A DNA stretch of 63,312 bases, counting the filler, from Neolecta irregularis DAH-3 (taxonomy: Eukaryota): assembly GCA_001929475.1 (NCBI GenBank). It is 5 parts of 5 records of this genome, joined end to end, with 100 filler letters (N's around TTAATTAATTAA, not from the genome) between each part and the next. Parts side by side here need not be neighbours in the genome. Positions count along the whole stretch, not along the records: positions 52,197 to 63,312 come from LXFE01000582.1; 4 more parts are not named here. The stretch is one strand, 5' to 3'. Under the pieces are notes generated by a model. It was not told where the DNA came from and did no database searches. It saw nothing but the letters and a program-made list of their open reading frames with translations. Positions 14,877 to 63,312 of the stretch are shown here, piece by piece (the first letter of the stretch is position 1; every line of letters begins with the position of its first letter). The translations under genes and the position numbers were made by a program.

Positions 14877-14910
14877 CACTTCCATCTCACCCGCGTTCGA
14901 NNNNNNNNNN

Positions 14911-15025
<115 letters not shown>

Positions 15026-15125
15026 NNNNNNNNNNNNNNNNNNNNNNNNNNNNNNNNNNNNNNNNNNNNTTAATTAATTAANNNNNNNNNNNNNNNNNNN
15101 NNNNNNNNNNNNNNNNNNNNNNNNN
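15026..15125. other. Artificial contig linker N-TTAATTAATTAA-N
   Basis: Six-frame stop linker between N runs; the same linker occurs near 19924, 25710 and 52141. Confidence 0.97.
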
Positions 15126-15822
15126 CCCAAGACAGCCACTGTATTATGAGGCTTTTTCGAGTTCAATCTACAGAGGAGATAGTTTGCCGAGATCCATTCA
15201 TGAACAGCTACCATTAGCAGTGGCTGATAGGAAATTATGCACCTTTATCTTCGCCAGAGAGGATTCCAACGCCATCCTTGGTTATCGGAAAGGGATACTC
15301 ATTCTTCAGTCGTTTTCGGATTGCGTCGAGAATGGCCTCACCTGCTTCTTCATTGTGTGACTTGAGACCAATATTCGCTTTAACTAGAATTGATGTGCTG
15401 TCCTGAAGTTCCTTGGGAACTTTTTCCATGGCAAATTCAAGTAGCGGGTCAAGACTTTTCGCAGCTTCTATAGGGTTGGTAATGTAATATGGAAGACCGG
15501 GCTTGAGCTCAGCCCAGTCCTCATCTTCGAGTCTGGACATCCCATTACAGATCTTGAACGTGTAAACATGAATTCGAGATTGACTGTGTCCAGCGTCGAT
15601 TATCAGGACGTATTCAAGGGCCTTGGTATCCGTGGGGGTCAAAGACAGCGTTGTATTGTCCTCGGAGCATTTATCGAGGCCCCAACATGGAAATGATTTT
15701 GTAGAGGAAGCTGCCTCTGCATCTGCAAATCAGCTGGTTAATCTGTTTGAAAGAATACAAGTGAGAGCCGCAGTGACCAGAATAGATATGAAAAAGGCAT
15801 TCTCGGCAAACTTGAGACGCAT
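15126..15822 (-). CDS. Divergent GDA1/CD39 (NTPDase) paralogue with signal peptide, truncated by a gap
   Basis: MRLKFAENAFFISILVTAALTYAEA...IIDAGHSQSRIHVY...KANIGLK...LSGEDK/AVHEWISANYLL; same intron position after ACR3 as GDA1. Confidence 0.85.
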
Positions 15823-17073: not shown

Positions 17074-18791
17074 TTAAGAAAGTTCCTTCACTTTGCAGTC
17101 CTGGTTCTCAAGTAAAGGAAGTGAAGCACCGAGACACCAGCCTAGTTCATTCCCTTTCAGCTTTTTTGCAATCTTGACTTCTCGGTCCAAAGGCATATCA
17201 TATCCTACTCCTAAGAGAACCGAGATGAAGTTGAGATCCAGACACCATTCAGGCCGTTCTGTTAATTCCACAATTGCTCCCTGGATCGCTTCAAAGGGCG
17301 ACCATCCAACATCCCCAGTGCAGACGTTGGCGGTGAGAGAGCGAAGTTCGTCAAGAGTAAACGACGATGGCATTCCAAGCGGTGCTGTTCGATCATAGAA
17401 ATAACTAAAGATATAAACATCTTCCCTGGCAAATGTCTTGTCTAGAGATGGTTGGTGAGCCCCATTGAATGAGCATGGAAGAAGAGGGCAATGAGCTTCT
17501 TTGTTGAGAATGTTTTCTGCAAAATATCGACATTGAGAAGCGGAAGGAGTAGAGGGTCCTGTCATTCCCAGTTTTAGGGTTTCTCCATCCAGTTCGACAT
17601 CAATAAGACGACTCATGCCGGGAGGTATACATGGGTTGATGATGGGTTGTGACTTCCAGTTGTCTGACTTTGCAGAATCTTTAGCATTCTTAGCAACAGC
17701 ACGATGGATCAACTTGCGCGCTTCCATAAGGCCATAACCAAGATGAGAATGTTGATAAAGAGTAAAAGACCTTCCGCCAAATGTGAGAATATATTTGTGA
17801 TCTCCCGGTGCTAATTCCTCCGGCTTCCCGCCTTCTGGTGCCGGTCCAAATGTTGGTTCGAAGACAATCTGAGTAGAACCTCCTCCAAGATCGAGAATAG
17901 CAGCAGTAGGACCAGTCTTGGATGGGCCAATATTTCCAAGGAGATAATTTGCTGTAATCCAGGCATAGACCCCTGAAATATCATTTAATATTCTTGCACT
18001 GATCAAGCACACCTTCATCCTTTCCATCCATAATGGATACCCCATTATCACTGACAACAGGAAATGGGAAATTCTGTCGAAGACGAGTTTCGACAGCTTC
18101 AAGAATAGCTTTACTAGGACCTTCTCCTAGTAATCGAAGACCAGCTGTTGCTTTGACTGCAACTGGAGTGCAAGCGTATAGGTCATTTGGTACATTCTTC
18201 ATCCCAACTTGCAAAAGAGAATCGAGACTCTTTGCTGCACCCTCTGGATCCGTACCATATGATGATAATCCTGGTTTCGTTTGTTCGAATACTTCAGACT
18301 CCAGTTCGGGTGATATATCGCAATTATTGAATTTATAGACATGTACACGCGAGCCTGTTGAGCCGGCATCGATCATTAAGACGAATTGAACAATCGGCTT
18401 ACGAACATCTGCTGATTTATTGCATTTTGTAGTATGCAGCTGATGGCTGCTGGGATATGAAGGAGGAGTTGAAATAGGTGTCCATGGATTCGTTTCTTTT
18501 ACTACTTTAAGTGAATGAAACAAATAGAACCGGCTTACTGAGAGGACCAGAGGGCGAATATGACTCGGGAAGAAAGAACCAAGCTACTACGAGAAGTCCT
18601 GCGAAAACCGAAACTATCCTGAATATCCTAGCCCTTGTGATTGGAGATGACATGTCAGAATAGCGACGAGGTTTTTCGTAAGGGTCGTAATAAGCACTGT
18701 TCAGGTTTGATCTAGATGGAGGTTTCCGGGAAAAAAAAGAGTAGAATCTGGTTCTTTGTCTAAACAAAGCTGATTCAGGAGAAAAGGACAT
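17074..18791 (-). CDS. GDA1: Golgi guanosine diphosphatase (GDA1/CD39 family)
   Basis: N-terminal TM segment, [44 protein letters not shown]; 2 introns; start codon uncertain (18791 or 18653). Confidence 0.95.
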
Positions 18792-19879: not shown

Positions 19880-19979
19880 NNNNNNNNNNNNNNNNNNNNN
19901 NNNNNNNNNNNNNNNNNNNNNNNTTAATTAATTAANNNNNNNNNNNNNNNNNNNNNNNNNNNNNNNNNNNNNNNNNNNN

Positions 19980-20512
19980 CAGGGAATTCTCAAAGACGGT
20001 ACCAAAGACATCTCCCCCAGTGACATGATCGCCAATTTGAAGCTCGCCGGGAGTGAATTCCCATTGTTTCTTTCGATCCAAAGCATTGGTGGCTATTCCG
20101 CGGGGTATATAGATACTAGATGAAAGCTCCTGGATAGACCGCAATGGTCTCTGGATTCCATCGTAAATGTTCTCCATCAACCCCGGACCAAGCTCAACCG
20201 AAAGGGGTTTCCCAGTTCGCAGAACTGGATCTCCAACGGTGATACCAGCTGATGAGTTTCAGCTTTATTCCACAAGGCCAGTATAGTACCTGTCTCCTCG
20301 TAAACCTGAATGGTTGCCTTATCTGCTTCAATCCGAATCACTTCCCCAACCAGCTTGTCATGCCCCACTCGAACCTACCCGTTCAGCCATTGAAAAAGAC
20401 ATAAACTTACAAGTTCGTACATCATGCATCCAATCATATTCTCCGCAACAACAACAGGACCTGAAACTGAGAAGACATATCCGTAGTCGGTCTCGTGAAT
20501 TTCCTGACCCAT
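19980..20512 (-). CDS. VMA1: V-ATPase catalytic subunit A, 5' part (cut by a gap)
   Basis: [17 protein letters not shown]...[18 protein letters not shown]...QVYEET...[21 protein letters not shown]. Confidence 0.96.
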
Positions 20513-20746
20513 CTAGAAGCAATGGATGTTGGATTTGGAGTTGAAACTCGGAGGTTTAACAACGATATACTCCACCATCTACCAATCCCGGTCTCTTGGT
20601 TCTTTCTCGTACGTCGCCTTCAGGTTTGTCTTGTCTCTTATATTGTGAGAGTTTCTGCTACGACCGTGGCTGCTGAACGACCGAGAAAGCGTCAACGGCT
20701 TTCGTCCGCTGCCGTCTCAATTCCTCGGACGTCTCCCATTTCCAAT

Positions 20747-22681
20747 ATGAGATCACCCGACGAGAATGGCGAGAATGGTCATCAGAATGGGCTCGTTACG
20801 CTTCAGAATGGTCAGACGGATATTTCCCATAGTCCTCTATGCACTTCCTATAACGGCTATGATCGAGAGCAAGTCTCGAGACTGCTTGTCCAGGCCCTGC
20901 ACGATCTCGGCTACGAGTGAGTGAATAGAGTTTAAGCAGGGTTCCAATGACGTTTTTATAGAAAAGCGGCATCTTCGTTGGAAGAGGAATCAGGCTTCAC
21001 CGTCGAGTCAAATCATATTTCTCAGTTCCGTCACGCTATACTTGATGGTCAATGGACTGAAGCCGAGAGTCTTACTTCCTCGTTAGATTTGAGACATGAT
21101 ATTCGTCGCGAAGTATTGTTATCTTACCAACCTAATGCCTAACTTTTACCAGAATCTCCTCTTCTTAATACGGAAACAGAAATTCTTTGAGCTTCTTGAA
21201 ATGAACGAGGTTCAAAAAGCTTTAAAAGTCTTACGGAATGAACTATCGCATCTAGATCAAGATCCCGAAGAATTGCATCATCTTTCAAGGTAAGCCGCCA
21301 CATTATTTAGCTAATGTTGTAGTCTACTGATGACGGCTTCTGTGGAAGATTTGAAAGAGGAGTCTGGCTGGGACGGTGCTGCCGGCCAGTCTCGTAAGAC
21401 TCTGTTGGCTCGACTTCAAGGTATGATGATTTTGGAAAGGTGCTTATTGTTTGATCATATATCGCCAGTTGCAATGATCCCTAGAGCTCGTCTCGCGTCG
21501 CTGCTTGATCAAGCACAGTGTTATCAAATCTCAAAATGTTTATATCACACTTCTACGGACCCTACCTCATTATTTTATGATCATAATTGCTCGAAATCCG
21601 AATTCCCTCGTACTACAATTAAAATCCTTGAAGCCCATACGGATGAAGTCTGGTTCGTCAAGTTCTCCCATAATGGCAGATATCTTGCTTCAGCTTCCAA
21701 AGATGCAACCGTTATCATCTGGAATTTGGAGGTAGCATTTCCAAAATCCACTCTGTTAACAAATCAGACATTCGAATCACTGCATCGACTTGTAGATCAT
21801 TGCAAGGCTGTAACATGTGTAGACTGGTCTCCAAACGATGCACAACTTTTAACATGTGGTCAAGACTTTCTCATCCGTCTCTGGGACGTCGCGGTAAATT
21901 TCCATCACTCTTAAAAATGATCTAACCCTCAAGATTGGTCGATGTATCCGGATATTTGAGCATCATCAAGATTCAGTTAGTTGTTGTGCATGGCTGCCTT
22001 CAGGCAATGCATTCGCCTCAGCCAGCATGGACCAAGATATAGTTCTTTGGAGACTGGATGGTGCCATAACATACAAATGGAGCGGATTCCGAATATACGA
22101 CCTCACGATCAGCAATGATGGCGAATATCTTGTTTCTATTTGTACGGAGAAAAAACTCCATGTCTATCATGTCCCATCACAACAATTTATATCAGACGCC
22201 CAGTTACAAGGGGAACCCACTTGCGTTACCTTTGCGGAAGACTCCCAGCATGTTCTCATAAATACATCTGCAAAGGTACTCCATAATATTATTGTCAAAT
22301 TCAAATTTTCAAGGAAGTACAGATGTGGTATATCCCGGAACCGCGGTTGGTTAGGAAATTTGTGGGACAAGATCAAGGCAAGTATGTGATACGCTCTTGT
22401 TTCGGAGGACCGAATCAAAATCTTATACTAAGTGGAAGCGAAGGTAGTCTTGTCATTGGCCTAAGAGGAGCTTATGTTAAGACGCACATGTTTACATCTG
22501 GCATCGCGAGCTGGGGACATTGATCGAGCGGCTTGCAGGTCATACTGGTACAGTCAACTGTGTGGCTTGGAATAGTACCAGTGTGAATGGCATGTTTGCA
22601 TCGGCAGGGGACGACCAACTCATACGCATGTAAAGAGTATCATATCAAAAGGAGCTGACAGAAAGTTGGTCGCACGGATAA
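20747..22681 (+). CDS. WDR26/Gid7-like LisH-CTLH-WD40 protein
   Basis: REQVSRLLVQALHDLGY, FRHAILDGQW, IPRARLASLL, HTDEVWFVKFS, YVIRSCFGG; about 9 introns; start may lie further upstream. Confidence 0.9.
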
Positions 22682-22745
22682 GGCTACATAGGACATATAA
22701 CTGCAATGACATAATGTTGCATGGTTTAACTCATCTACGGTTTGT

Positions 22746-25383
22746 TTAACGACCCTTGTATTCATCAACAAATTTGTCAATCTTAGAGTTCTGCCACGTC
22801 CAACGGACATTGTAAAGAAAGGGACGAAGATCAAAGCGGTTGTCATCAGGACTGTATGCTTCCGCATGATACGCTGGGGTTATTGTCGTCATTTTGTGAC
22901 GATTGACAGCGTAGTAATAGAAGAATCTTTTGACTTTTATTGCAATCTACCTTAGCGCCACAGGGACTTGAAAGAAGCATACCTCGAAGGGAGAGAGCCG
23001 ACCAGACCATTCATGTAACAACCTATTGAACATACTATATGGCCCGCACTTGTCCACTTTACGAAGTCGTCCAAATATGGATAATTCTTCATACGTCATA
23101 CCCATGTCAACCTGAGGGTCAAATAATGGCAAAGATATCCCATACCTCGTCAGACTGCACGTGATCATGTGTTATTGGTTCTAGTTCCGCTGTTGGTGTT
23201 GCAGTCAAAATTTCCTGCAGGATCGGAAGTCCAAAGGTCGTTTCGGAATATGCGATAAACCGTTTCAAGTCATTCTTCGAAATACCTCCGATGGGATTCA
23301 CATCAGCGCTAGAACAATCATATTTTGTCAAATATCCACGGATGCTAGTCTCTTAGAAATCTTTTCAAGGTATGGAGGACACCATTCATCAACATTGGCA
23401 CTTCCTAACACTAAGAGTGAACCCTGAAACCCTCGGACCCAAGGCAAAAGTTGAGCAAAGAAATATGCAAGGACCATTCGCAATCGAGCCTTTAACGATC
23501 AGGGACTTGCATTAATCAATGGCTGACTTGAATATTCTGTAGTGCAAAGTTTTCTGCAGGAGTACCTCCGTGTACTCCAAAGATCGGCGTCTTTCCTGTG
23601 ACAATCGAAAACAGATTAGTGACTGCGGAGACAAGATCGTCCATATTTAAATCAATGTGATAAGCTCCAATGCTTTGGGCCAGCACCTTGGCACGCTGTC
23701 GGGTTTCCTTACTTGAATTTTGAGTACCCATGAAACTTGTATGGAATATTCGACTTTAAATTAGCATAGTGTTGAGTGAAATAACTCATATACCGCGAAA
23801 CTTCCTGTGGACTTTTAGGAAGCCAGTCATGAGCGGATGTGTGTCCGGTGACTCGCCGGATGTCCTTGATTACAGTTTCATCTAAAACTAAGCTGCCGAA
23901 TTTAGACGTGCGCACTCTCATCCTGACATGCCTTGACAACGAGTTGAGACATAGAATGTACCAGGACCGCCGTTGAACAACTATCAATTCCGCCACTCAA
24001 TGGCAAAAAGTATCCGCTAGCTCCCGATCTGCGTAAATAATCCCATAGCCAGCAGGCTGGTCCAAATCTAGCAATAAGCAAGGGCAAATTAACAAGTCAC
24101 ACACGCAATCTCCTCTTCCGGTAGATGATATCTCACAGTGATTTCTTTAGTTGGTTCAATTCGCGCATCCCATTGACAACCTTCTATAGACAAGGGCTTG
24201 GGGGCTTCAATTCGAAGATAAGAGGGTGATTGAGTGGCTTGTATATTACGAGAAGAGGAAGTCCGATGGCTTCTCACAACTTCAAGGTCAACCGTCGCAG
24301 TTACTACTTCCTAGATCCAGGTAAGTGTATCTGATTACAAAGAAAATTCAACGTACGACTTCGTTGAGCGAAAACTGAGATCCTTGTGCAATAATCTTGC
24401 CATTAAGCGCGATCATAGCGCACCCGTCATAATACAGTCGGTCTCCGTCACAACCTTGCTGATTTGCATAGAGGTATATACCACCGGTCTTGAAATAAGC
24501 GGTTGGTCGTTAACTGAGAATACTTTATATGTTGCCTCTTGTATCAGTTCTACCCGTCGATGCAGCTTCCGAAGCTCGTGATGACTACCGCTCGAATTTG
24601 TAAATAGCTCAACGCCATTGAGACCCATTGCAATGTGGGGACTAGGCCGTCAGTAACCATTACGGCATTCAAGTACCTATTTGGCGTGAAAAGCTCTTCA
24701 CATGTTTCAGCACCAAAGCAGGAGTCTGGTGTGGATATCACCGCATCCCCAAAAGGTACACTTGTCTAAGATAAGTCCAGGACTGCGAAATAAAAACCCC
24801 TCACTTGACCGGTTAAATCTGATATAATTCTCGGCAGATGGAGAGTTTCGACATGCCTGGGACGACCCCATGGCGTAAAATAGCGCTGTTCACGATAATT
24901 TCCATCATTTGCAAGCGAGAGCTTCGGTCGGATGAGTATTATTTTACTATCAAGAATAATGACACGGCAATTATATTTGACATTTCGATGCACAACCGGC
25001 CTTGAATTAGAGTGTTTCTTCAGGGAGGTATACATTCCAATATCCAAATAAATGTTATCAGTATCGGGCGATTTCAAGATGGTTGCCAAGACTTCCCATG
25101 AATGCAGATAGGTATCATCTATAATATTCAGTAAATTTATAACTTTAAAGAGTCAACTTTCTAAAAAATGATCAAAGCATCCATACCCACTATGAGATTG
25201 TGAGCAGTTGCAGATGTCAAATTATTTTTCGTCTCACGTTATCTCAAGCTCAGGACCAACTCGAAGCGACGCACCCCGGGCTTTTGCAATCCTGATGCTT
25301 TCCAGGATTCTACCCAAGTTGCCATCAAAATCCATAGCCCATTGATTGAGTGAACATGTTGCTACAGTCGCAAGAAGACTCAT
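22746..25383 (-). CDS. QNS1: Glutamine-dependent NAD+ synthetase
   Basis: GPELEI / RPKL / ETCEEL nitrilase triad, [34 protein letters not shown]; about 13 introns. Confidence 0.97.
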
Positions 25384-25916
25384 AGTCTGGTTGGTGGGAA
25401 AAGCCCGGTTGATGGCGACATGCGCAAAAACAGGCCTTATCACCTGATATTAGTTAGTAACCCACGACCGTTCAGAGCGCCAACATATGACCACTCTCTG
25501 CCTCGAGACTTAACTTGCTATTCAATATCAACAATTTTGTGCACCAATTCCTGCTCTAATTCCCTTACTTTACCCCTGTAGTTCATCAGTATTCTCTCTC
25601 AAAAAGGATTTGCCCATACTTGAAATCCTCGACTTCCTTCCAACATTCCAATGGCCTGTGATCATNNNNNNNNNNNNNNNNNNNNNNNNNNNNNNNNNNN
25701 NNNNNNNNNTTAATTAATTAANNNNNNNNNNNNNNNNNNNNNNNNNNNNNNNNNNNNNNNNNNNNATGTGGACTAGATATTTATTTTCAAGTATTAGTTC
25801 AGTAAACCCACTAGGTCTTTATACAAAAGGATTTATTGTGCGGTTATCCAAAGCTGCACTAACGCCTCACTGTTGTTCGTGTCATCACAACTGATTAGTT
25901 GACAATATCTATTCGT

Positions 25917-52897: not shown

Positions 52898-53995
52898 CTA
52901 ATTCTTAGCCCTCCTACTCTTTCCAAGCCGTTTCTTAACACCGCCAGCTTTCTTTGGTCCCGTACCTTTCATTTTCTTCACTGAGAACCCATCAATATCG
53001 CCGCTACTTTTTGCATCATTGCTTTTGCTATACCTCTTCTTCCCTCCGAACCCAAACTTTTCGTCTCGTTTTTTACGTGACACTTTTGGTCTTTTCTTCT
53101 CCTCCTTCTTACTTGCTGTGTCAAGAGCAACATCAAAATCATCGTTTGTAGTAAGGTCTTCGCCTCCGCGTTCTAAATAGTGAGTAACAAAGCATCCACT
53201 GGGTTGGCATACTTCTCTTGAGCGTTTTGATTTTGTCGAGCGTATCTTTCTTGGATTTCTCCCGTTCTTGAAGTTTGGCCATTTGTACTTGCTTACCGAA
53301 TTTCTTCAGATCGCGCTGTTTCCTTGCTGTTTCTGAAGCCTTCTTTGCTGTTGCATCTTCCACAAGTTTATTTTTGACCTGGAGTTAGCAAATGTGATTT
53401 TGAACGCAGCGAATACTTTGTCCATATGTTGATCTGTCTTCAACATTTCTGCAAAATAATCTGTAGGCCTTGTAAAAGGGACGCCTTCGTTAACAAATAA
53501 TTTCTTTCCATTTTGCGCAGCCTCGAGGGCCTGCTTATAGAATGCAAGTTCTCTTGAAAGATCGTCGTTTACATCCTTTATATTTACAGCTTCCGAAGAG
53601 ATAACAACTTGGTGATCTGAAAATTTGAGGGAAGAGTATGGACGACATATCGATTTATATTTCTGAGCAAGAGCAGAGCGGTTATTGATAGTCATGCGTT
53701 GGTAAGGCACGATATCCACATCGTCGTTCGCATTCAAAATCAACGAGTCGGCATCAGATAAAGCCATTTCTTCTCCCTCGCTTTCCACTTCTTCATCATT
53801 TTCCGAGGAATTATCTTCAAAATCTTTTTCTGCTTCTACGTGTACGAGTTGAGGGGCCTCAGCGTTATCCCGATCTTGATTCGTAGAATTTTCAGCTATC
53901 TGCAACTTTTTTGCCCGACTATTCTTGACTTTCTGTCCTTTCTGTTCTTCAATGTGTCTTTTCAGCGCCGACTTCAATACGCCGACTTTGACCAT
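52898..53995 (-). CDS. EBP2: rRNA processing protein Ebp2
   Basis: DDLSRELAFYKQAL, RPTDYFAEMLKTDQHM, KKFGKQVQ, KFGFGGKKR..KSND, RLGKSRR; 2 introns. Confidence 0.97.
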
Positions 53996-54138
53996 GGTAT
54001 GTCAAATTAATATCGAAAAAATCAAGATGTAGCTGTGCCGAGATTTTTCTTCGAGATATCAACACGTGACATCGTTGAATGGGCGCTTCAAAGTTGTTAT
54101 CACCTGTTCGCATTAGCCAAACCAATCAAATTTACCAT

Positions 54139-54488
54139 ATGGACACAGCAAAAGAAGCAGTGACATCTACAACAGAAGCACCAACGGAACAAGGCGGAGC
54201 AGTAGAGCAAAGGTCAATTGTACCATTTATATCTGATATTCGATTGATAACTATCTAGACCGACGACATGCTGGATCAACTCGTATAAATCCCTGAAATG
54301 CCGTGTAGATGCTGAGAATGCAACAGCAAATCAAGATACAAGGCATGTCAAAAGATTTGCAAGCCAAATGTCACCATTTTTACTAGAACAATCTCACATC
54401 ATTAGTGGACGATATTCACACAAAACTTCAGAAATTGGAGGAATCTTTTGGCGATGAGCCGTTGCCTAGCGAAAAAGAAAAGGCTTAG
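54139..54488 (+). CDS. HSBP1-like small coiled-coil protein
   Basis: 4 exons: ...TDDMLDQL/QIKIQGMSKDLQAK/LDDIHTKLQKLEES; absent from the ORF track. Confidence 0.7.
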
Positions 54489-54679
54489 AGCTTAAATAAT
54501 GAAAGGATTCACAGTTGAAGAGGTAAGGCTTCGTGCCCTTGATACTGATTTAAGGCAATGTAGTTCAGAATGTTGGCTTTGGGAAGATATCTTGAGCTCA
54601 ACTTGTAATTGAAGAATATCTGAATGTATTTTAAAGGGTTTCAGTCGTTAAGCCAATGTGGATCTCGTACAAGTTATCA

Positions 54680-56181
54680 CTACAACTCATCCTTTGCAGG
54701 CTTCTCTGACTCGAATACTTCAAACGCCTTGAGAATATTTCTTCTGACTTGGAAATCATCGGCCCTATCCTGATGAACAAACAAAAACAGCTGTGATGAC
54801 TTACTTGGAAAGTGCCAAACTACCTTTTGCGAGAATATTGTCGAGCCGTAATCCTTCGTCGTTGACATACGAGGGTTTGGTCGTGATCTTTTCAAAGACC
54901 TTTAGATAATAATTCGCATGACTAGAGTGAGTAGTCATGTATATCATACATATACCTGCTGGGATTGTTCTCTGAAACCTTTTTTGCTTCAGAGATAATA
55001 TCCTTACTTTTTGTCTCCATAAATATTGTGGCAAGTTCATCTAGTTCAGCTATACGGCCGGCTTGCGACCCAAGGGTACCACCGATCTGTCGGTTTGTAC
55101 CAGCATTTGCATTGATGAAAGAAAGAATGCCCGCTTCTGTTCGCTCTCCAGAATAGCCAACAGGAGTCTTTGAGGGGCCTCGTGGAAAAACTACACTTTG
55201 TCAACTCAAAAAGGGCAATGAAAAGTATACATTTGAGTGTTGGATATCCCTGAACTCCATGCTGTTCACACAGGGCTGTGTGAACAGTACAATCAACTTT
55301 GGCAATGACAATCTAAATTCATTAGATGGAAAAGACAGGTCGAGTACATTAGGCTCTCCAATCATGTCGTTAGCGAGGTTGTCATATTCAGGAGCCAACT
55401 TTTGGCAATGTCCACACCTAGGAAATCAGGATTATTTTCCAAAATAAAGACCATGTCGTATAGAACTTTACAAAAACTTTGCGTAAGCCAAAAGTAATCA
55501 ATACAAAAGCTTACCATCCTTTTGGGGATCCATCACAATTGAATAAAAGTTCTCGTCAGTCAAAATTATCACTTCACTCCGAGATGTTTGTTTCGGTTTA
55601 ATTTTTACGCCAGCGCGTTCCATGATAAATTGTGAAAGAGACTCAAAGTCACGTCCTTTGTCGTAGTCTTGAGGATCTTTGGCAGAATTATCAAACCACT
55701 GTAGTTTGAACGAATGGACTCCTCATAAAAGTACCTTCAGGGTCGGAAAGCCCTTGATTCCAAATCTTTTACCAAGATCCTTGTGTTGATCTGCATCAAC
55801 TTTGGCGACAATAACTTTGTCTGGCTGATTAGTTGGAGATAAACGTCCCGATTACCTTTTGCGTGCACGAACTCGTCAGCGAGCTGCTCAAAAGTAGCTT
55901 TCTGTTAGAGGATATTGGGTGAATTCTTACGAGCCAAATTCTTGCAATGCCCACACCTTGACATTCAGAATTTTATATCCGCGTAATAGCATACCATGGC
56001 GCATAAAACTCAACTAAAGCTGGTATTCCTTTCCCGATAACCTTTGAAATACTGAACAAAAGGCCCGAATAGATTATTATACTTGATCAAAATTGTCCAA
56101 AGTCAAGTCTATGACATTTGAAGCAGAGATAGAAGAGGAGAAGAGTGCTGCTGCAGAAATAATGGACCAATTCCAAACCAT
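54680..56181 (-). CDS. ER protein disulfide isomerase, ERp38/TigA type (two WCGHC domains + ERp29-like tail)
   Basis: Signal peptide, two WCGHC motifs, GFPTLK/GYPTLK, C-terminal KDEL; about 11 introns. Confidence 0.93.
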
Positions 56182-56399
56182 CGTCGTGAATCTAAGCTAG
56201 GAAACCAAAACCAACTTTTGTAGTTCGAACCCCCCAAAACGATAATGCACCAAAACAAATCGTAGGGGGGGATATAATATCTAAATTATATCTTGTGATA
56301 GATTTCTGTTATTTTCGTCCAATTCATGTATATTCACTGGGATCGAATCGGGCTTTTGTGGGAAAATTTACGCCAACACCAACACTCTCACTGTTCACC

Positions 56400-56873
56400 A
56401 TGGTGGTTTTGCATGACGTTACAGATGAATCTTTTGTGGATGCCGGACACGAGAATGATGATGATTACACTGATGTTTCCTCAAATGAAGAAGAAAGCAT
56501 TAACGACGCTGTGTCTGAAGTAGACTTTAATCCTTCCCGCGAAACTCTTGCAGAACGGATTACCGCTTTGAAAGATATGGTATCCCCGTCAAACCGAACT
56601 CGGGTTCAAGGAGCTTTCTCGAAAAGCAGTGTTTTTGCGAGCACTGCAATGGTGGTGATTAGTCGGACACTGTGGGTTCTTTCGACAACGGCCTTATTTC
56701 TAGTTCCTTTGGCATTGATATCAGAAGAAGAGCGAGGGTTTATTGAGCAAGAGAAGGAATTCCAGATGCAACAGAACACGACAACGGAGGTATCTTATAG
56801 TGCATTGACCAAGTTATAGCTGACTTTTCAGAATTCGACATCTGCAAAGGATCCGATGTATGGCGATAAGTGA
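56400..56873 (+). CDS. TOM22: Mitochondrial import receptor Tom22
   Basis: Acidic N terminus, ETLAERITALKDMVSP, TM segment LWVLSTTALFLVPLAL; 1 intron. Confidence 0.92.
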
Positions 56874-57009
56874 AAATTTCTTTTTGAAGCCGGTAATGAT
56901 AGGAACAGCAGTCCAGTGTACTTGTATATATCTGTAGACTTTCCCACAATGCTTTTATAAAGTCATCTTGGGTTCTATTTCCTTTATATAGTCAATAAGT
57001 ACGAAGAAA

Positions 57010-58675
57010 TCAGTTGCTGCAAATGCCACTTCCTCTTATAGCACTCTTGTTGACAAATATTCTCGGCAGACCATTCTGCATTGAGACCGTGACAGAACCA
57101 TTGTATCCAACAGTAATCTCGTTACAAGCAACAACTTCGACCAACGTTGTGCCCTGTGAAAATTCACTTTCAAAGCTAAAGGTAGTGGATGCGGCTGTCG
57201 AACCACTATTTGTAAGAACCAAGAGCAAATTCTTTTTCTGAATGGCAGAGTCATGTTTATCCGCCTTGAGAAGCTTCATATCTGTTGTGAGGTGGCTCGA
57301 ATCGGCATATGCTAGATAGTTTCTCAACTGGTTGCATGTAGCAATAAAACTGTATAATGGAGCAGAAGTGGAGTACCCAGAAGTCCAAAGAACTTGTCTG
57401 ATCCTTAGCAAAGAAAAGAGCCACGATACCTGTTTGAGGGCGCATTGTTTCCTGTAAAGCTTTGCTCTTGACCATAAAATATCGTGGGTATACCATCACT
57501 TAGGATTGTGAACGCGACAACCTAACGATGAGTCTACGAAACGAAAAGAAAGTTTCATTTTTGTTTGCATTGACATCTGAATTGATAGATGCAAAGCGGT
57601 ACATGTCATGATTTTCAGAAAATGTGTTCATCAAGCTTGGATCGGGGAATGCAGCCTGGATTTGCGATATTTTGCTCATTGCAGCTGACATATCGGCCCC
57701 ACTAAAAGCAAACGCACCCAGAATGACCAGCTGCTGTGTTGCAAAGTCGTGGTTTGAATCTAAATATCTTTGGTAGCTAGCCAGGTAGTCAATGTCGGCA
57801 GAATAGACTAGATATGAGGAAATTCACAGATAACAGATACCCTCTCCAATGGTAAAGACATCTACTGAGGCTCTGTATGAAGAGAGAAATTCCTTGCTGA
57901 CATGCTTGGCGGCATCGATTCTAAGACCATCGAACTAGTCATCAGCATTCATGTTGGCAAAATATGTGTACCCCATAGGTCGAGATTGCATTCTGCGCCC
58001 ATTGTTTTAGAGGACCGGCGACATCGGTGTCTTCAAATCGGAGATCAGCTAGAGATACAATAGTTCCTTCTAGCCAACACTGCTCAATTTGGGTTTGTGT
58101 GGAATAGAGCGTGAGGGGACAATATTCGTGATAGTACTTGACCGAGTTGAACGGCTGTAGTTGGGAGTAATCGACTGCATTTTCATCGGCAGGATATGCC
58201 ATATGGTTGACCACGACATCTAGCATAACGTACATTCCTCTGGCATGGGCCTCGGAGACGAGGGATTTCAAATCATCACTGGATCCAAAGTGCGAATTGA
58301 GAGCGTCAAAGTTATTTGGCCAGTAGCTACGAGCTATCAGCTTTAAGAAATAGCAAGGTATACCCATGATAACCATTGCCGGCAAAGGTTGACTGATCGA
58401 TATTCTGATTAATAGGGGAAATCCAAATCGCTGTAAATCCCATCTCTTGGATGTATGACAATTTATTTTCAATCCCTTTCCATGTACCTGTCTCTTAATC
58501 GTAGATTCGCTTCAAACGTACCTCCGCAGTAATTATCAAGATCTCCACAAGACCCGCCCGATTCTTCAGTTGTGGCGAATCGATCTGTCATGATCTGATA
58601 AATTGACCTTGAACGCCAATCTGCTGCAGACGCAGCGAATATCGCAGGCACGAAGAGCAATAAAGCAAAGAGCAT
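57010..58675 (-). CDS. Secreted alpha-amylase, GH13_1 (Taka-amylase type)
   Basis: Signal peptide, [30 protein letters not shown], catalytic RIDAAKH / GEVY / ENHD; 6 introns. Confidence 0.95.
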
Positions 58676-59231
58676 AATAGGTGGCGAAGATGATCCGCGG
58701 AGTAGGTGAGCTTAGCGCGGAAAGAGGACAAGATATAGTCATTGTAGATGTCTTATTTCAAGATTCGATAGTGGAAGGAGAGAAGAATAGTCACTCGGTA
58801 TCATGAATCCGAAAAGAATTTCTTCTTGTACTGCGGCGCTATTTCGAAAATCTAGAATTCTAGCGATGTCTTGAGCCCCTTTCTCGTCGCACTTTAAATA
58901 AGCAAGGTTGGGGAACCGATATAAGAGATGCCTGACATAGTTAGTGTAACGGAGATGCTCCCTTGGAGTAAACCTGGATATCGGTATAGGGAGTGGAGGT
59001 TCCCTCAGCGTATGAGAGGTATAGCTTAGACACTAAGAAGTCATGTATATATAGCACCTATGTGGAAGATAGTCGTCATCATTACTGTGACGACTAACTG
59101 CCACATAGTTAGCCCTCTGCTACAGTTAGTACTTGAAAGTCCATGGCTAAATGACACTTGATGACCAGGAATGAATAGGAGACAATTACAAATGAACCTT
59201 CATATCGAATATGTAGCATCCAACTTCAGAG

Positions 59232-60887
59232 TCAGATAATCTTGGTATCAAAGATCCTCCATCTTCGCTTTGAACAACTCGCTTCCGACTCGCGTATATT
59301 GTATTCCTTAATACAACATTCAAACCACATTCCTTGAATTGGTTCACCGCGTCGTTCAAGTAAAGTACCCCAAAGAAGAAATAGTTTCTCCCGAAGTTTT
59401 GAGAGATTTACAAGACTGTCTCTCACGCTGCTGGTCAGATTTTTTCAGGGAGAACACACCTGACGGAGTCCATTCCCAAAAGATAGCTTGCGTCTTCATC
59501 GGCTACAATCACGGGAAGACAACATCGATCCTGCCCTTCCAGCAGTAAAGCAAACTGCCACGTTGTTGAATGAGTGGTTATTCTACAGTTTGGACAACGA
59601 TGTTTATGGGCTGTCGACCATCTACTCTCAGAACAAAATTTGTTTGCTATTCTCACGTCACCGAGCAAGCAACACATGATCGCACTGAAAAGTCTTCGAG
59701 ATGATCGGGCATAAAATCTATGACTTTTGCTTTTGTGCGAAACTTGCGAGGGTGGGGTGTCAAAGCCAGGATATCCCCGATATCCAACAACGGCCACTCG
59801 TTAAACCCACATTCAACTGGAAATCAGCGACTTGACAAGGCTGATATACCGTTGGCAACACCTTCACCAGGAATCGCAGATGAAATCATTTCTTCCTCCT
59901 TTTTTCGCATTTCCCGTTCATATTCCTCTTTCTCCTGTTCAAAATGTAACTGATAGTTCCTTTTCCGGTCAATCAGCGGACCCAGTCTTGAGTCGTGGGG
60001 TTTAATAGCACCGACGTTGATTCGGTCAGGGTAGGTTCGGTCTCCATGCAGCGCACCTTCTAATTGACCGTCTTGATTTAATTTTCCTCTCATATTACGA
60101 ATCCAACAAAATCCACCTTCTTTGAGCGTCTGTTGTGCGGCTTTTGCGTGTATGTCCCATATTGACACTTGCAGCGTATATTTCCCATACGGCCCTTGCC
60201 ATTTTTGCTGGGTGCCCCATTCAACATTGTGTACGAGAGAATTTGATGTGTAGTCGGTAATATATATGGTGACTGGATTTCCATTCCCGGTGAATAATTT
60301 GACGATTTCTCCCATGATATCGTAGAATCGCGACTCTTGTATATCTTTGACGAGGGTGAAGCCTTTTGATTTTGGCTTTGCCGCGATTTCTGAAGCTGGT
60401 ATTCCTGCTGCAGCGATTGTTCCGCCTTTGTTTTTCCACCAGTTTAACAGTTCTTTGGCATATGATAATTCTTCTTTGGAAAGGACAAAGCCGACTGTTT
60501 TCGAGCCTTTTCGAGAATAGGTGCACCATTCTGTGTTCCAGGTAGTGATGCCCTGGTTATCCGAGTTATGCAGCTGTATTCTGAGTGACCGTAAAAATAA
60601 CACGTCGCCGTCTTCTTTCAGATCTGGCAAATCTTTGGGGTTTGGTCGAAACATTTGGCACATGAGGCCGCTTCCAAGCAGAGATCTGGTAGGATCGCAT
60701 ATCGTCATGGAACAATTATAGTCTATCAATTGAGACGGCAGGTTTTGGTAATACCTGTTCCCTTTGATAAACGTACAGGACGATGAGCCGCTATTACTCC
60801 AACAACATTGAAAAGTTGGGTTATGGGTTTCAGGTCTGCGATCTGGGTATATTCCCATTCCGAGGTTAAAAGAGCTTTTGGTGCCAT
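59232..60887 (-). CDS. POT1: Telomere ssDNA-binding protein Pot1
   Basis: NVVGVI...SKGTDY...FRP...LP...GDVLFLR (OB1); IYITDYT...GPYGKYTLQVSIWD (OB2); KFRTKAKVIDFMP, WQFALLLE, LREKLFLLWG (OB3). Confidence 0.9.
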
Positions 60888-60966
60888 TGAGATGGGATCA
60901 CGCGTTCCGTCATTGATACTTTCACTATTATAATTTACGTCAAACTCCAAACTCCTAGTTGTATGT

Positions 60967-61914
60967 TTACTTTCCAAAAACAGCATTCTGGGGTGCAGCA
61001 GTCGGTTTGTCCTCGCTGGTAACATAAGCTCTGGTCATTCCGCCATCGACAGCCATTTCGGCAGCATTTAGGTAACTGCTCTCATCGCTAGCCAAGAATA
61101 CGACTACCTGCGCCTGTTCAACGGCTTCGCCAAAACGGCCCATTGGAAGGTGGATGAGTCGACGACTTGCTTTTTCAGGGGTATCGAGAAAGGCTTGGAG
61201 GAGCGGGGTGTTTAGAGGTCCAGGACAGAGAGAGTTGAGACGGATGTTGTGGCGAGCATGGACGATTGCTAGTTCTCGGGTCATTGCGAGAACAGCGCCT
61301 TTAGACGCGGTATCTGGAGATTCAGCGTGAATAAGAAGAGGATATACAAGCTAGTTGACTTGCGGCGCTTCCTACAAGAGCGACCACACTGGCGGTGTTG
61401 ATGATACTGCTTGGTCTCCCGTGTTTTCGCATAGCAGCGATTGCATATTTACACCCAAACCAGACCCCTTTGACGTTGATATTGTGAGTCAACTCCCAGA
61501 CTTTCTCGTCTGTATTCTCGTCGCCGTCGAGTGGATGCATAATGCCTTGTTTGTTAGTCGTAACCAGAGACAATATTGACAGAATTCTCAGACACAAAAC
61601 ATACCGGCGTTATTAAACAACACATCGACGCCTCCCCATTCTTCTGCGGCAGCAACTAGTGCCCTGACATGTGCTTCTTTGGAAACGTCTGTATGTTGTG
61701 TTTTCAGGACTGCGTGTGGAACGAGATGCTTGACTTTTGCAAGGGCGATATCCAATGATTTCTGGTTGATGTCGGATAGGATGACTTTGGCACCATGGGA
61801 AGCAAAGAGGATAGCGGTTTCGATACCAATTCCACTATTCTTAGACAAGTAGTGAAATCCGTACCCAGCGGCGCCTGTAATAATGCAATTTTTATTCTGT
61901 AGTCGGCCAGACAT
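60967..61914 (-). CDS. Short-chain dehydrogenase/reductase
   Basis: ITGAAGGIG, FNNAGIMHP, YTASKGAV, NSLCPGPLNTPLL, VDGG; 3 introns. Confidence 0.92.
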
Positions 61915-61917
61915 GGG

Positions 61918-62176
61918 GTGGCGGTGGTAGGCGGTGGAGATAGGATAGGGAGAGATCAAGGGGTAAAGGGTGGCGGTGGTAGGCGATGGAGATAGGATAG
62001 GGAGAGATCAAGGGGTAAAGGATGGCGATGGTAGGCGATGGAGATAGGATAGGGAGAGATCAAGGGGTAAAGGGTGGCGGTGGTAGGCGATGGAGATAGG
62101 ATAGGGAGAGATCAAGAGGTAAAGGATGGCGACGAGGTGGCGATGGAGATAGGATAGGGAGAGATCAAGGGGTAAG
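61918..62176. repeat. 52-bp G-rich minisatellite x5 abutting the SDR start codon
   Basis: Unit gtggcggtggtaggcg(g/a)tggagataggatagggagagatcaaggggtaaagg starting at 61918, 61970, 62022, 62074 and 62126. Confidence 0.95.
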
Positions 62177-62529
62177 GACAGAGATCAAGGGAAGGACATT
62201 GGACCAAATATATATGCCGTTTATTGAACAACCGATAACCTCCCGCTTGGTAGTAGAAAGAGTAGAGAAAAGCAATGAAAACAAGACGAGCTATGCTTCA
62301 AACACAAACATCATGAAAACGAATCCCCATTATGAAAACGAATCCCCATCATGATCATGATCATGATTAGAACGAACCCTTTGACCATCATTTAGAAACG
62401 CATCCATTGATCAAGCAAGTACCCAAAATCGACAACGCTAATGATAAACCCAGCTGCCGGGATGAAAGACGAAATAGTTTGAATGGAAGGACATGGACCA
62501 GAACAGACGAATTAGTTTGGGGATAGAAG

Positions 62530-63312
62530 CTAGTTTGCAATGGAAGGGACATGAGTGGCAGTTGATTCTGATCTGTCATCGATTCGCTGGACACACCACC
62601 AGCGGTGACCGGGCCATGCTTGCGACTGGCAGCTCTTGCTGCAATACTTAGTGCGTCTATAGTTAGTTTTGGAAGAGGAGAGCAAGACACCTGCATCGGC
62701 GACACTTTGCAAACTGGCGGCTGTATTCTTCCCACTTTCCGCATTTCATGTTTGCGCACTGTCTGATGCCGCCGCGGGATTCGTCTTTCCTGCAGGCGTT
62801 CCGCATGATGACGCCAGCCCAGTACTGGACTTCCTGGGGATGGATGCGCAGGGTGAACTTTTCGACTAGGGAAAAGATGTTGCAGGGAACTCTGTTGTCC
62901 GAGCAGGGGGACCGAGCCGAAAAGAGGTCGTCTATGTAGTATGATTCAGCGAAATATGTACGAAGGTTTGGATATTTTGAGATATAGGCAAACAGCTGCA
63001 GGGCGGAGACGATGTCTTCTTCTCGGGGCAGCGAGGCGCTTTTGTATTGTGCGTGCGAGGGACCTGTTAAATTTTGGGCGATGGTTGGGCGGATCAGGGT
63101 GTCTGAGGGAGGTTGGACTGCGCCGATGGTTTGAGCGGGCGGGGCCAGGCGTCTGTTTGGGCGTGCGATGAGGGGATCGTCAGTACGGGAGTCTGGAAAG
63201 AGGCGGCGGTCGGCACGGGAGTCTGGAAAGAGGCGGCGGTCGGCGCGGGAGTCGGGAAAGAGGCGGGGGTCGGGAAAGAGGCGGTGGCCGGGAAACAGGC
63301 GGCGGTGGCCGG
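62530..63312 (-). CDS. MUB1: MYND zinc finger protein Mub1/SamB (5' part outside the window)
   Basis: PREEDIVSALQLFAYISKY...QYWAGVIMRNACRKDESRGGIRQCA..CGKWE...FAKCRRC/RRTKYCSKSCQ..AW..HRWWC. Confidence 0.93.
63184..63312 (-). repeat. Coding minisatellite (about 30-bp and 19-bp units) within MUB1
   Basis: gggagtctggaaagaggcggcggtcggc(a/g)c repeats, encoding RRLFPDSRAD-like units. Confidence 0.75.

Follow-up and report, generated by a model that had tools for sequence, protein, structure and literature searches.

A candidate GA-AG intron in a Taka-type alpha-amylase gene of Neolecta irregularis

The fifth intron of an alpha-amylase gene of Neolecta irregularis is a candidate GA-AG U2-type intron, i.e., it would belong to a rare but known kind. 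Positions 57556-57522 on the minus strand, read directly, hold 35 nt that begin with GA and end with AG, as the original prediction had it. The GA-AG boundaries are confirmed as real, well beyond chance. That this is a genuine intron, spliced exactly there, is the explanation we tentatively favour, at a little under an even chance; it has to be weighed against a recent lesion of the donor, an error or minor allele in the assembly, and the junction of the deposited gene model.

The window, i.e., the whole stretch of 63,312 nt that was analysed, consists of five contigs joined by artificial spacers (44 N, TTAATTAATTAA, 44 N) at 15026-15125, 19880-19979, 25666-25765 and 52097-52196. Gene neighbourhood across the spacers is not real. 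Plain gaps of 10 N are found at 14901-14910 and 49088-49097, and an Rfam search of the whole window gave 0 matches. The amylase gene is located in the last contig, 52197-63312 (11,116 nt), on the minus strand at 57010-58675, with the ATG at 58675 and the stop codon at 57010-57012. It consists of seven exons and six introns of 32-37 nt, and the coding sequence totals 1458 nt, that is, 485 codons and the stop.

58675-58522, minus strand: amylase exon 1
58488..58521, minus strand: amylase intron 1, 34 nt, GT-AG
58487-58364, minus strand: amylase exon 2
58327..58363, minus strand: amylase intron 2, 37 nt, GT-AG
58326-57972, minus strand: amylase exon 3
57935..57971, minus strand: amylase intron 3, 37 nt, GT-AG
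57934-57841, minus strand: amylase exon 4
57808..57840, minus strand: amylase intron 4, 33 nt, GT-AG, with a CTCAT branch-like motif
57807-57557, minus strand: amylase exon 5, ending ...KN
57522..57556, minus strand: amylase intron 5, 35 nt, GA...AG, phase 0
57528..57532, minus strand: CTCAT branch-point-like motif in intron 5, its A followed by 7 nt up to the intron end; putative branch site
57521-57430, minus strand: amylase exon 6, starting VVAFTIL...
57398..57429, minus strand: amylase intron 6, 32 nt, GT-AG
57397-57010, minus strand: amylase exon 7

Exon 5 is 100% identical to the NCBI protein "Alpha-amylase 1 [Neolecta irregularis DAH-3]" (P0001, 482 aa). The gene contains the Pfam domain PF00128 and the C-terminal domain PF09260, and the N-terminus of its product resembles a signal peptide. 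The deposited protein aligns over its full length to solved fungal alpha-amylases (3vm7, E=2e-123; 6xsj, 4e-121; Taka-amylase 2guy, 1e-118). These data support a Taka-type fungal alpha-amylase of family GH13, presumably subfamily 1 in CAZy usage. Identity to Taka-amylase A (2guy/7taa), 3vm7 and 6xsj is about 44% at full length, and the Neolecta protein shares with them the catalytic Asp/Glu/Asp, the signal peptide and PF09260. The catalytic residues D218, E242 and D310 fall in invariant columns and are all kept, and the NH and NHD motifs are also present. Once the GA-AG intron is excised, the Neolecta amylase is colinear with these enzymes.

Exon 5 ends with ...AAC AAA AAT and exon 6 starts with GTT GTC GCG TTC. 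In the alignment to PDB 3vm7, the N that closes exon 5 is paired with N332 and the V that opens exon 6 with V333; this V also aligns to residue 314 of Taka-amylase 2guy. As N332 and V333 are adjacent in this alignment, the junction is gap-free, and the original prediction of colinearity with Taka-amylase is borne out. Searched by itself, exon 6 matches 3vm7 333-362 and Taka-amylase 314-343, in both cases starting with its residue 1. The terminal K and N of exon 5 are the majority residues of their columns (95/119 and 112/119 homologues), and six of the seven residues of VVAFTIL are the commonest or second-commonest of theirs, while the second V is outside the four commonest. The 35 nt also cannot be retained, as had been claimed, since a transcript keeping them runs into a frameshift and a stop 18 codons on (ORF 57500..57823).

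All frame-restoring boundary pairs around the junction were enumerated, with donors at 57620-57525, acceptors down to 57470 and lengths of 20-130 nt. This gave 1603 pairs and 930 distinct proteins, which were scored against a profile of the 119 homologues returned with the deposited amylase (40-45% identity). The GA-AG pair is the top-scoring of the 1603 at 615.0 bits, tied with an equivalent AA-GG pair one base along; the latter yields an identical mRNA, but neither of its ends is canonical, and it was rejected. The next pair with an AG acceptor reaches 609.0 bits and the best canonical pair 602.8 bits. The main candidates are the following.

57556-57522, minus strand: GA-AG model, 35 nt, 615.0 bits
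57568-57522, minus strand: GC-AG alternative, 47 nt, GCAAAC donor and same acceptor, four residues including K deleted, 602.8 bits
57574-57522, minus strand: GT-AG alternative, 53 nt, GTCAAT donor and same acceptor, six residues including KN deleted, 597.2 bits
57542-57499, minus strand: GT-AG of the deposited model, 44 nt, GTTTCG...CCTAAG, VVAFTIL lost, 595.6 bits

The GH13 alignment, named as a check in the original prediction, thus comes out colinear for the GA-AG model, at 615.0 bits against 595.6-602.8 bits for the alternatives. The lengths agree. The segment from FSENHD to GQEQ has 42 residues in the GA-AG model, as it has in 114 of the 119 homologues, but 36, 38 and 39 residues with the 53-nt GT-AG, 47-nt GC-AG and deposited 44-nt GT-AG introns, each of which is seen in 0/119 homologues. 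The alignments support GA...AG as the sole boundary pair that keeps the amylase colinear with its family. The same prediction held that in-phase GT or GC alternatives delete the conserved KN. This is correct for 57574-57522, which loses KN, and for 57568-57522, which loses K; it fails for the GT-AG pair 57542-57499, which keeps KN and deletes VVAFTIL instead. The list of competing junctions (gat/gtcaat and aat/gcaaac) was accordingly incomplete, having missed the likeliest competitor, the one behind the deposited protein. Another donor, GTAGAC at 57537 joined to the acceptor at 57499, falls in the wrong reading frame.

Rebuilding the protein with the intron 57542-57499 reproduces the deposited amylase letter for letter: at the junction, it reads ...KNETFF then SDGIP. 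This model could be right, i.e., the native mRNA could use this GT-AG pair and the enzyme carry that very sequence. It is a published model from a project with RNA-seq, its dinucleotides are canonical, its 44 nt lie within the 32-48 nt of other introns in the window, and GTT donors do occur. However, it scores 19.4 bits below the GA-AG model, and its product shows a 3-residue gap at the exon 5/6 junction against both 3vm7 and 6xsj, besides the segment length of 39 that no homologue has. The 21 nt that it discards encode VVAFTIL in frame, the conserved helix segment of the family. In the AlphaFold model of the deposited protein (53-sequence alignment, mean pLDDT 88.7), there is just a helix of 7 residues (321-327), followed by coil (328-333) and then a strand (334-338). 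The missing segment is, in this model, the end of the helix before the GIP-bearing strand, which we take to be helix alpha-7 before strand beta-8 in the usual (beta/alpha)8 numbering. Altogether, we consider it very improbable that the deposited junction is the native one.

The NAD synthetase gene in the same window (minus strand, contig 19980-25665) is informative about the annotation. The deposited protein (P0121, 712 aa) carries an 11-residue insert that a profile of 110 homologues lacks. This insert is an unspliced, in-frame GT-AG intron of 33 nt at 25001-25033 (minus strand), with a CTAAT branch-like motif; when 25033-25001 is spliced out, ...DIGM is directly followed by PVVH. As the same annotation keeps this intron, its junctions are not RNA-verified, and the published models are no evidence for the junction that the cell uses. 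The gene models are described as a MAKER merge of Augustus, SNAP, GeneMark-ES and PASA/Trinity evidence, with 6.6 Gb of RNA from wild fruiting bodies, in the excerpted text of the genome paper (PMC5309816). The deposited amylase junction is probably not RNA-backed. Since exact GA-AG excision is the sole route to a normal enzyme, the public gene model is probably wrong; the deposited 482-aa amylase most likely errs at junction 5 and, by comparison with the family, lacks a conserved helix segment.

How unusual is the GA intron among the introns of Neolecta? Excluding it, we checked 30 introns in the window by homology or Pfam: 14 in NAD synthetase, five in the amylase, three in RINT1 and eight from single genes (ceramidase, aldehyde dehydrogenase, septin, Ebp2, short-chain dehydrogenase, Doa1, Btz and GDA1); for these last, frames and profile positions were inspected by eye, a weaker check than a full alignment. 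All 30 are GT-AG and none is GC-AG. Position +2 of intron 5 (57555, minus strand) is A, while it is T in 30/30 of the others. The 19 introns with exact coordinates, all GT-AG, are 32-48 nt long with a median of 37. Their +3 position is A in 12, G in five, T in one and C in one, and +4 to +6 are variable; the donors carry little information past GT and a tendency to have A at +3. They have CTNAY-like motifs a few nucleotides before the AG, e.g., CTCAT and CTCAC. These branch-like motifs are loosely defined, being CTNAY or sometimes TTGAC, and lie only about 5-12 nt from the AG.

With its 35 nt, an A at +3, a CTCAT branch-like motif and a terminal AG, the GA intron falls within this pattern. Intron 4 of the amylase has the same CTCAT at the same spacing. 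The preceding exon ends with AAT, as does the exon before the NAD synthetase intron 25033-25001, and the donor is one base away from GTAACT. Judged from its sequence, it is an ordinary Neolecta intron in all respects but +2. GTT and GTC donors exist too, including GTCAAT; GTT is found in 1/19 of the validated introns and in 5/28 of a heuristic set of GT-AG introns from a window-wide ORF-bridging census. Such donors being in use, and 44 nt falling inside the observed range, the rival junctions cannot be dismissed on splice signals alone, and the case rests on the protein. The census itself is too noisy for counting non-GT donors, because GT is not even the commonest dinucleotide among its candidates. 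Two flags of "no GT possible" raised by ORF bridging, in Doa1 and Btz, were threshold artefacts, and ordinary GT-AG introns are present there.

U12-type introns have the donor consensus /RTATCCTT and the branch consensus TCCTTAAC. Read directly, intron 5 has GAAACTTT as its donor and zero TCCTTAAC-like motifs in its 35 nt, and a U12-type reading was rejected.

We suggest that the ordinary U2-type spliceosome removes 57556-57522 in spite of the GA donor. Recognition would depend on an intron length that is fixed and very short (about 32-48 nt), the G at +1, the A at +3, the putative CTCAT branch signal 8 nt from the intron end and the terminal AG. With so little information in Neolecta donors beyond GT(A), one mismatch at +2 may be permissible. 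The resulting mRNA would encode a complete secreted amylase of 485 aa. A working GA-AG intron would not be unexpected in this genome: the rate of 0.038% seen in Ganoderma, applied to about 23,800 Neolecta introns (5,546 genes with 4.3 introns each), gives about nine. Several observations count against GA-AG splicing. The flank of the intron lacks the upstream AG context of frequent GA-AG users, the exon ending with AAT instead; the nearest GT upstream of the donor is 18 nt away, and a GT six bases upstream, which the human FGFR case has, is absent here; and 30/30 of the other checked introns are GT-AG.

A broader version would be that Neolecta defines its tiny introns (about 32-48 nt) chiefly through their length, branch site and 3' end, and that the donor +2 position is no longer strictly read. 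If this were true, Oikopleura and Eurytemora would have a fungal counterpart in Neolecta, many of whose public protein models would contain systematic errors. As all 30 other introns are GT-AG, the window gives no independent sign of such a lax donor rule, and we regard it as rather doubtful.

In yeast and human genes, a donor whose +2 position mutates from T to A is usually spliced poorly or not at all. The GA could be a recent lesion: in the material that was sequenced, +2 of a GT-AG intron (GTAACT) would have changed from T to A, leaving a young pseudogene or null allele. At the DNA level, such a lesion or a base error would be indistinguishable from a working GA donor. The transcript would now be retained, with the frameshift and stop after 18 codons, or be cryptically spliced, e.g., at 57542-57499. 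That the intron is a single base from a typical donor fits this explanation, as does the DNA source, which was wild fruiting bodies, and a secreted amylase may well be dispensable in many life styles.

The conservation of the protein gives further weight to a lesion. Among the 120 columns that are at least 90% conserved, the Neolecta amylase keeps 102, below all 119 homologues, whose minimum is 103. At one such position, in the NREA-W motif, it has V where 119/119 homologues have A. NAD synthetase is ordinary in this respect; it keeps 320/333 conserved columns and ranks 19th from the bottom of 110, although the comparison between the two genes is imperfect because their homologue sets differ in breadth. 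The Neolecta amylase is the most divergent at conserved columns of the sequences compared, which points to a fast divergence specific to this gene and may fit relaxed or shifted constraint.

In a test for a pseudogene, however, the GA donor is the only candidate lesion. With the GA-AG intron removed, there are zero stops and frameshifts over the 485 codons, and the other five introns are intact and GT-AG; the column retention is the lowest of the 120 sequences. No second lesion is present in the 1458 coding bases, so any inactivation would be very recent. The catalytic and most of the invariant residues are kept, and about nine GA-AG introns would be expected genome-wide at 0.038% in any case. 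We consider a donor lesion possible, but on balance unlikely.

Errors of assembly or base calling might also explain the A at +2, or the pooled fruiting bodies might have carried it as a minor allele; the true or prevailing sequence would then be GT and the intron canonical. The intron is otherwise fully typical, and the genome was assembled with Velvet from Illumina reads of field-collected fruiting bodies. The reported coverage is 199-fold for DNA from wild fruiting bodies (PMC5309816, excerpted text), at which consensus substitution errors should be very rare. There is also no N or contig end near 57555, in a contig that spans 52197-63312. Such an origin of the A therefore appears improbable.

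The intron position offers little help from relatives. The nearest protein besides the deposited amylase is 44-45% identical, and a second Neolecta species is absent among the homologues. A metagenome scan returned five amylase loci of at most 47% identity, and none of the four that cover the region has an intron at the GA-AG position; three have one intron about 13 residues downstream and one has no intron there. The position of intron 5 is, going by these loci, not common to metagenomic fungal homologues.

Two other genes lie close to the amylase in the same contig. A POT1 telomere-protection gene (PF02765 and PF16686) is located directly upstream, and a Tom22 gene (PF04281, E = 6e-30) is convergent with the amylase gene. 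About 190 nt separate the end of the Tom22 ORF from the stop codon of the amylase, so that their transcripts may overlap at the 3' ends. Elsewhere in the window, there are two matches to GDA1/CD39 nucleoside phosphatases on different contigs. The first covers profile positions 7-136 only and sits at a contig start; it may copy the N-terminal part of the second, either as a paralogue or through duplication in the assembly.

59827-60897, minus strand: POT1 gene
56196-56816, plus strand: Tom22 gene
15238-15729, minus strand: first GDA1/CD39 match
17077-18583, minus strand: second GDA1/CD39 match

For the public record, we suggest that the 485-aa reading should replace the 482-aa protein, or that the gene be flagged as possibly disrupted. 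One more fungal GA-AG candidate is no surprise, given a frequency of about 0.04% in one curated fungal annotation, and it would gain weight only if splice-site use proved relaxed throughout the genome of this fungus, whose introns are extremely short.

GA-AG introns are known from other fungi. In the excerpted text on Ganoderma lingzhi, the hand-curated annotation has 35 GA-AG introns out of about 92,000, or 0.038% (PMC11590231). The corresponding text on Fusarium graminearum lists GA-AG among the non-canonical donor-acceptor types, and for seven genes with non-canonical sites Sanger sequencing gave confirmation (PMC3577648). The Neolecta intron is like these, as far as they are described there, in that it lies in a fungal nuclear protein-coding gene, has G at +1, A at +2 and an AG acceptor, and is rare amid GT-AG introns. 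In all three fungi, such introns are missed by gene predictors that allow GT or GC only. However, the Ganoderma and Fusarium cases have transcript or Sanger support, while the Neolecta intron is known here from DNA alone. Introns of Neolecta are also much shorter, with a mean of 42 bp in a genome of 5,546 genes and 4.3 introns per gene according to the excerpted genome paper (PMC5309816), and 32-48 nt here.

Intron 12 of SYMRK in Trema orientalis has a GA donor that was shown by complementation to be fully functional, as stated in the excerpted report (PMC10668435). In both cases, a single-base change in a conserved gene produces a GA donor and looks like a knock-out. The Trema case differs from that of Neolecta as described: it concerns a plant gene, the ancestral donor was GC and not GT, and function was shown by complementation.

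In Eurytemora affinis as well as Oikopleura dioica, GA-AG introns make up a few percent of all introns (Frey & Pucker 2020, PMC7072748, in excerpt). For these species, an AG that is conserved ahead of the donor is described there, together with a possible variant of U1. The candidate in Neolecta has in common with them the GA donor, the A at +3 and the AG acceptor. In contrast to these two species, its exon ends with AAT and not AG, and all 30 other checked introns are GT-AG.
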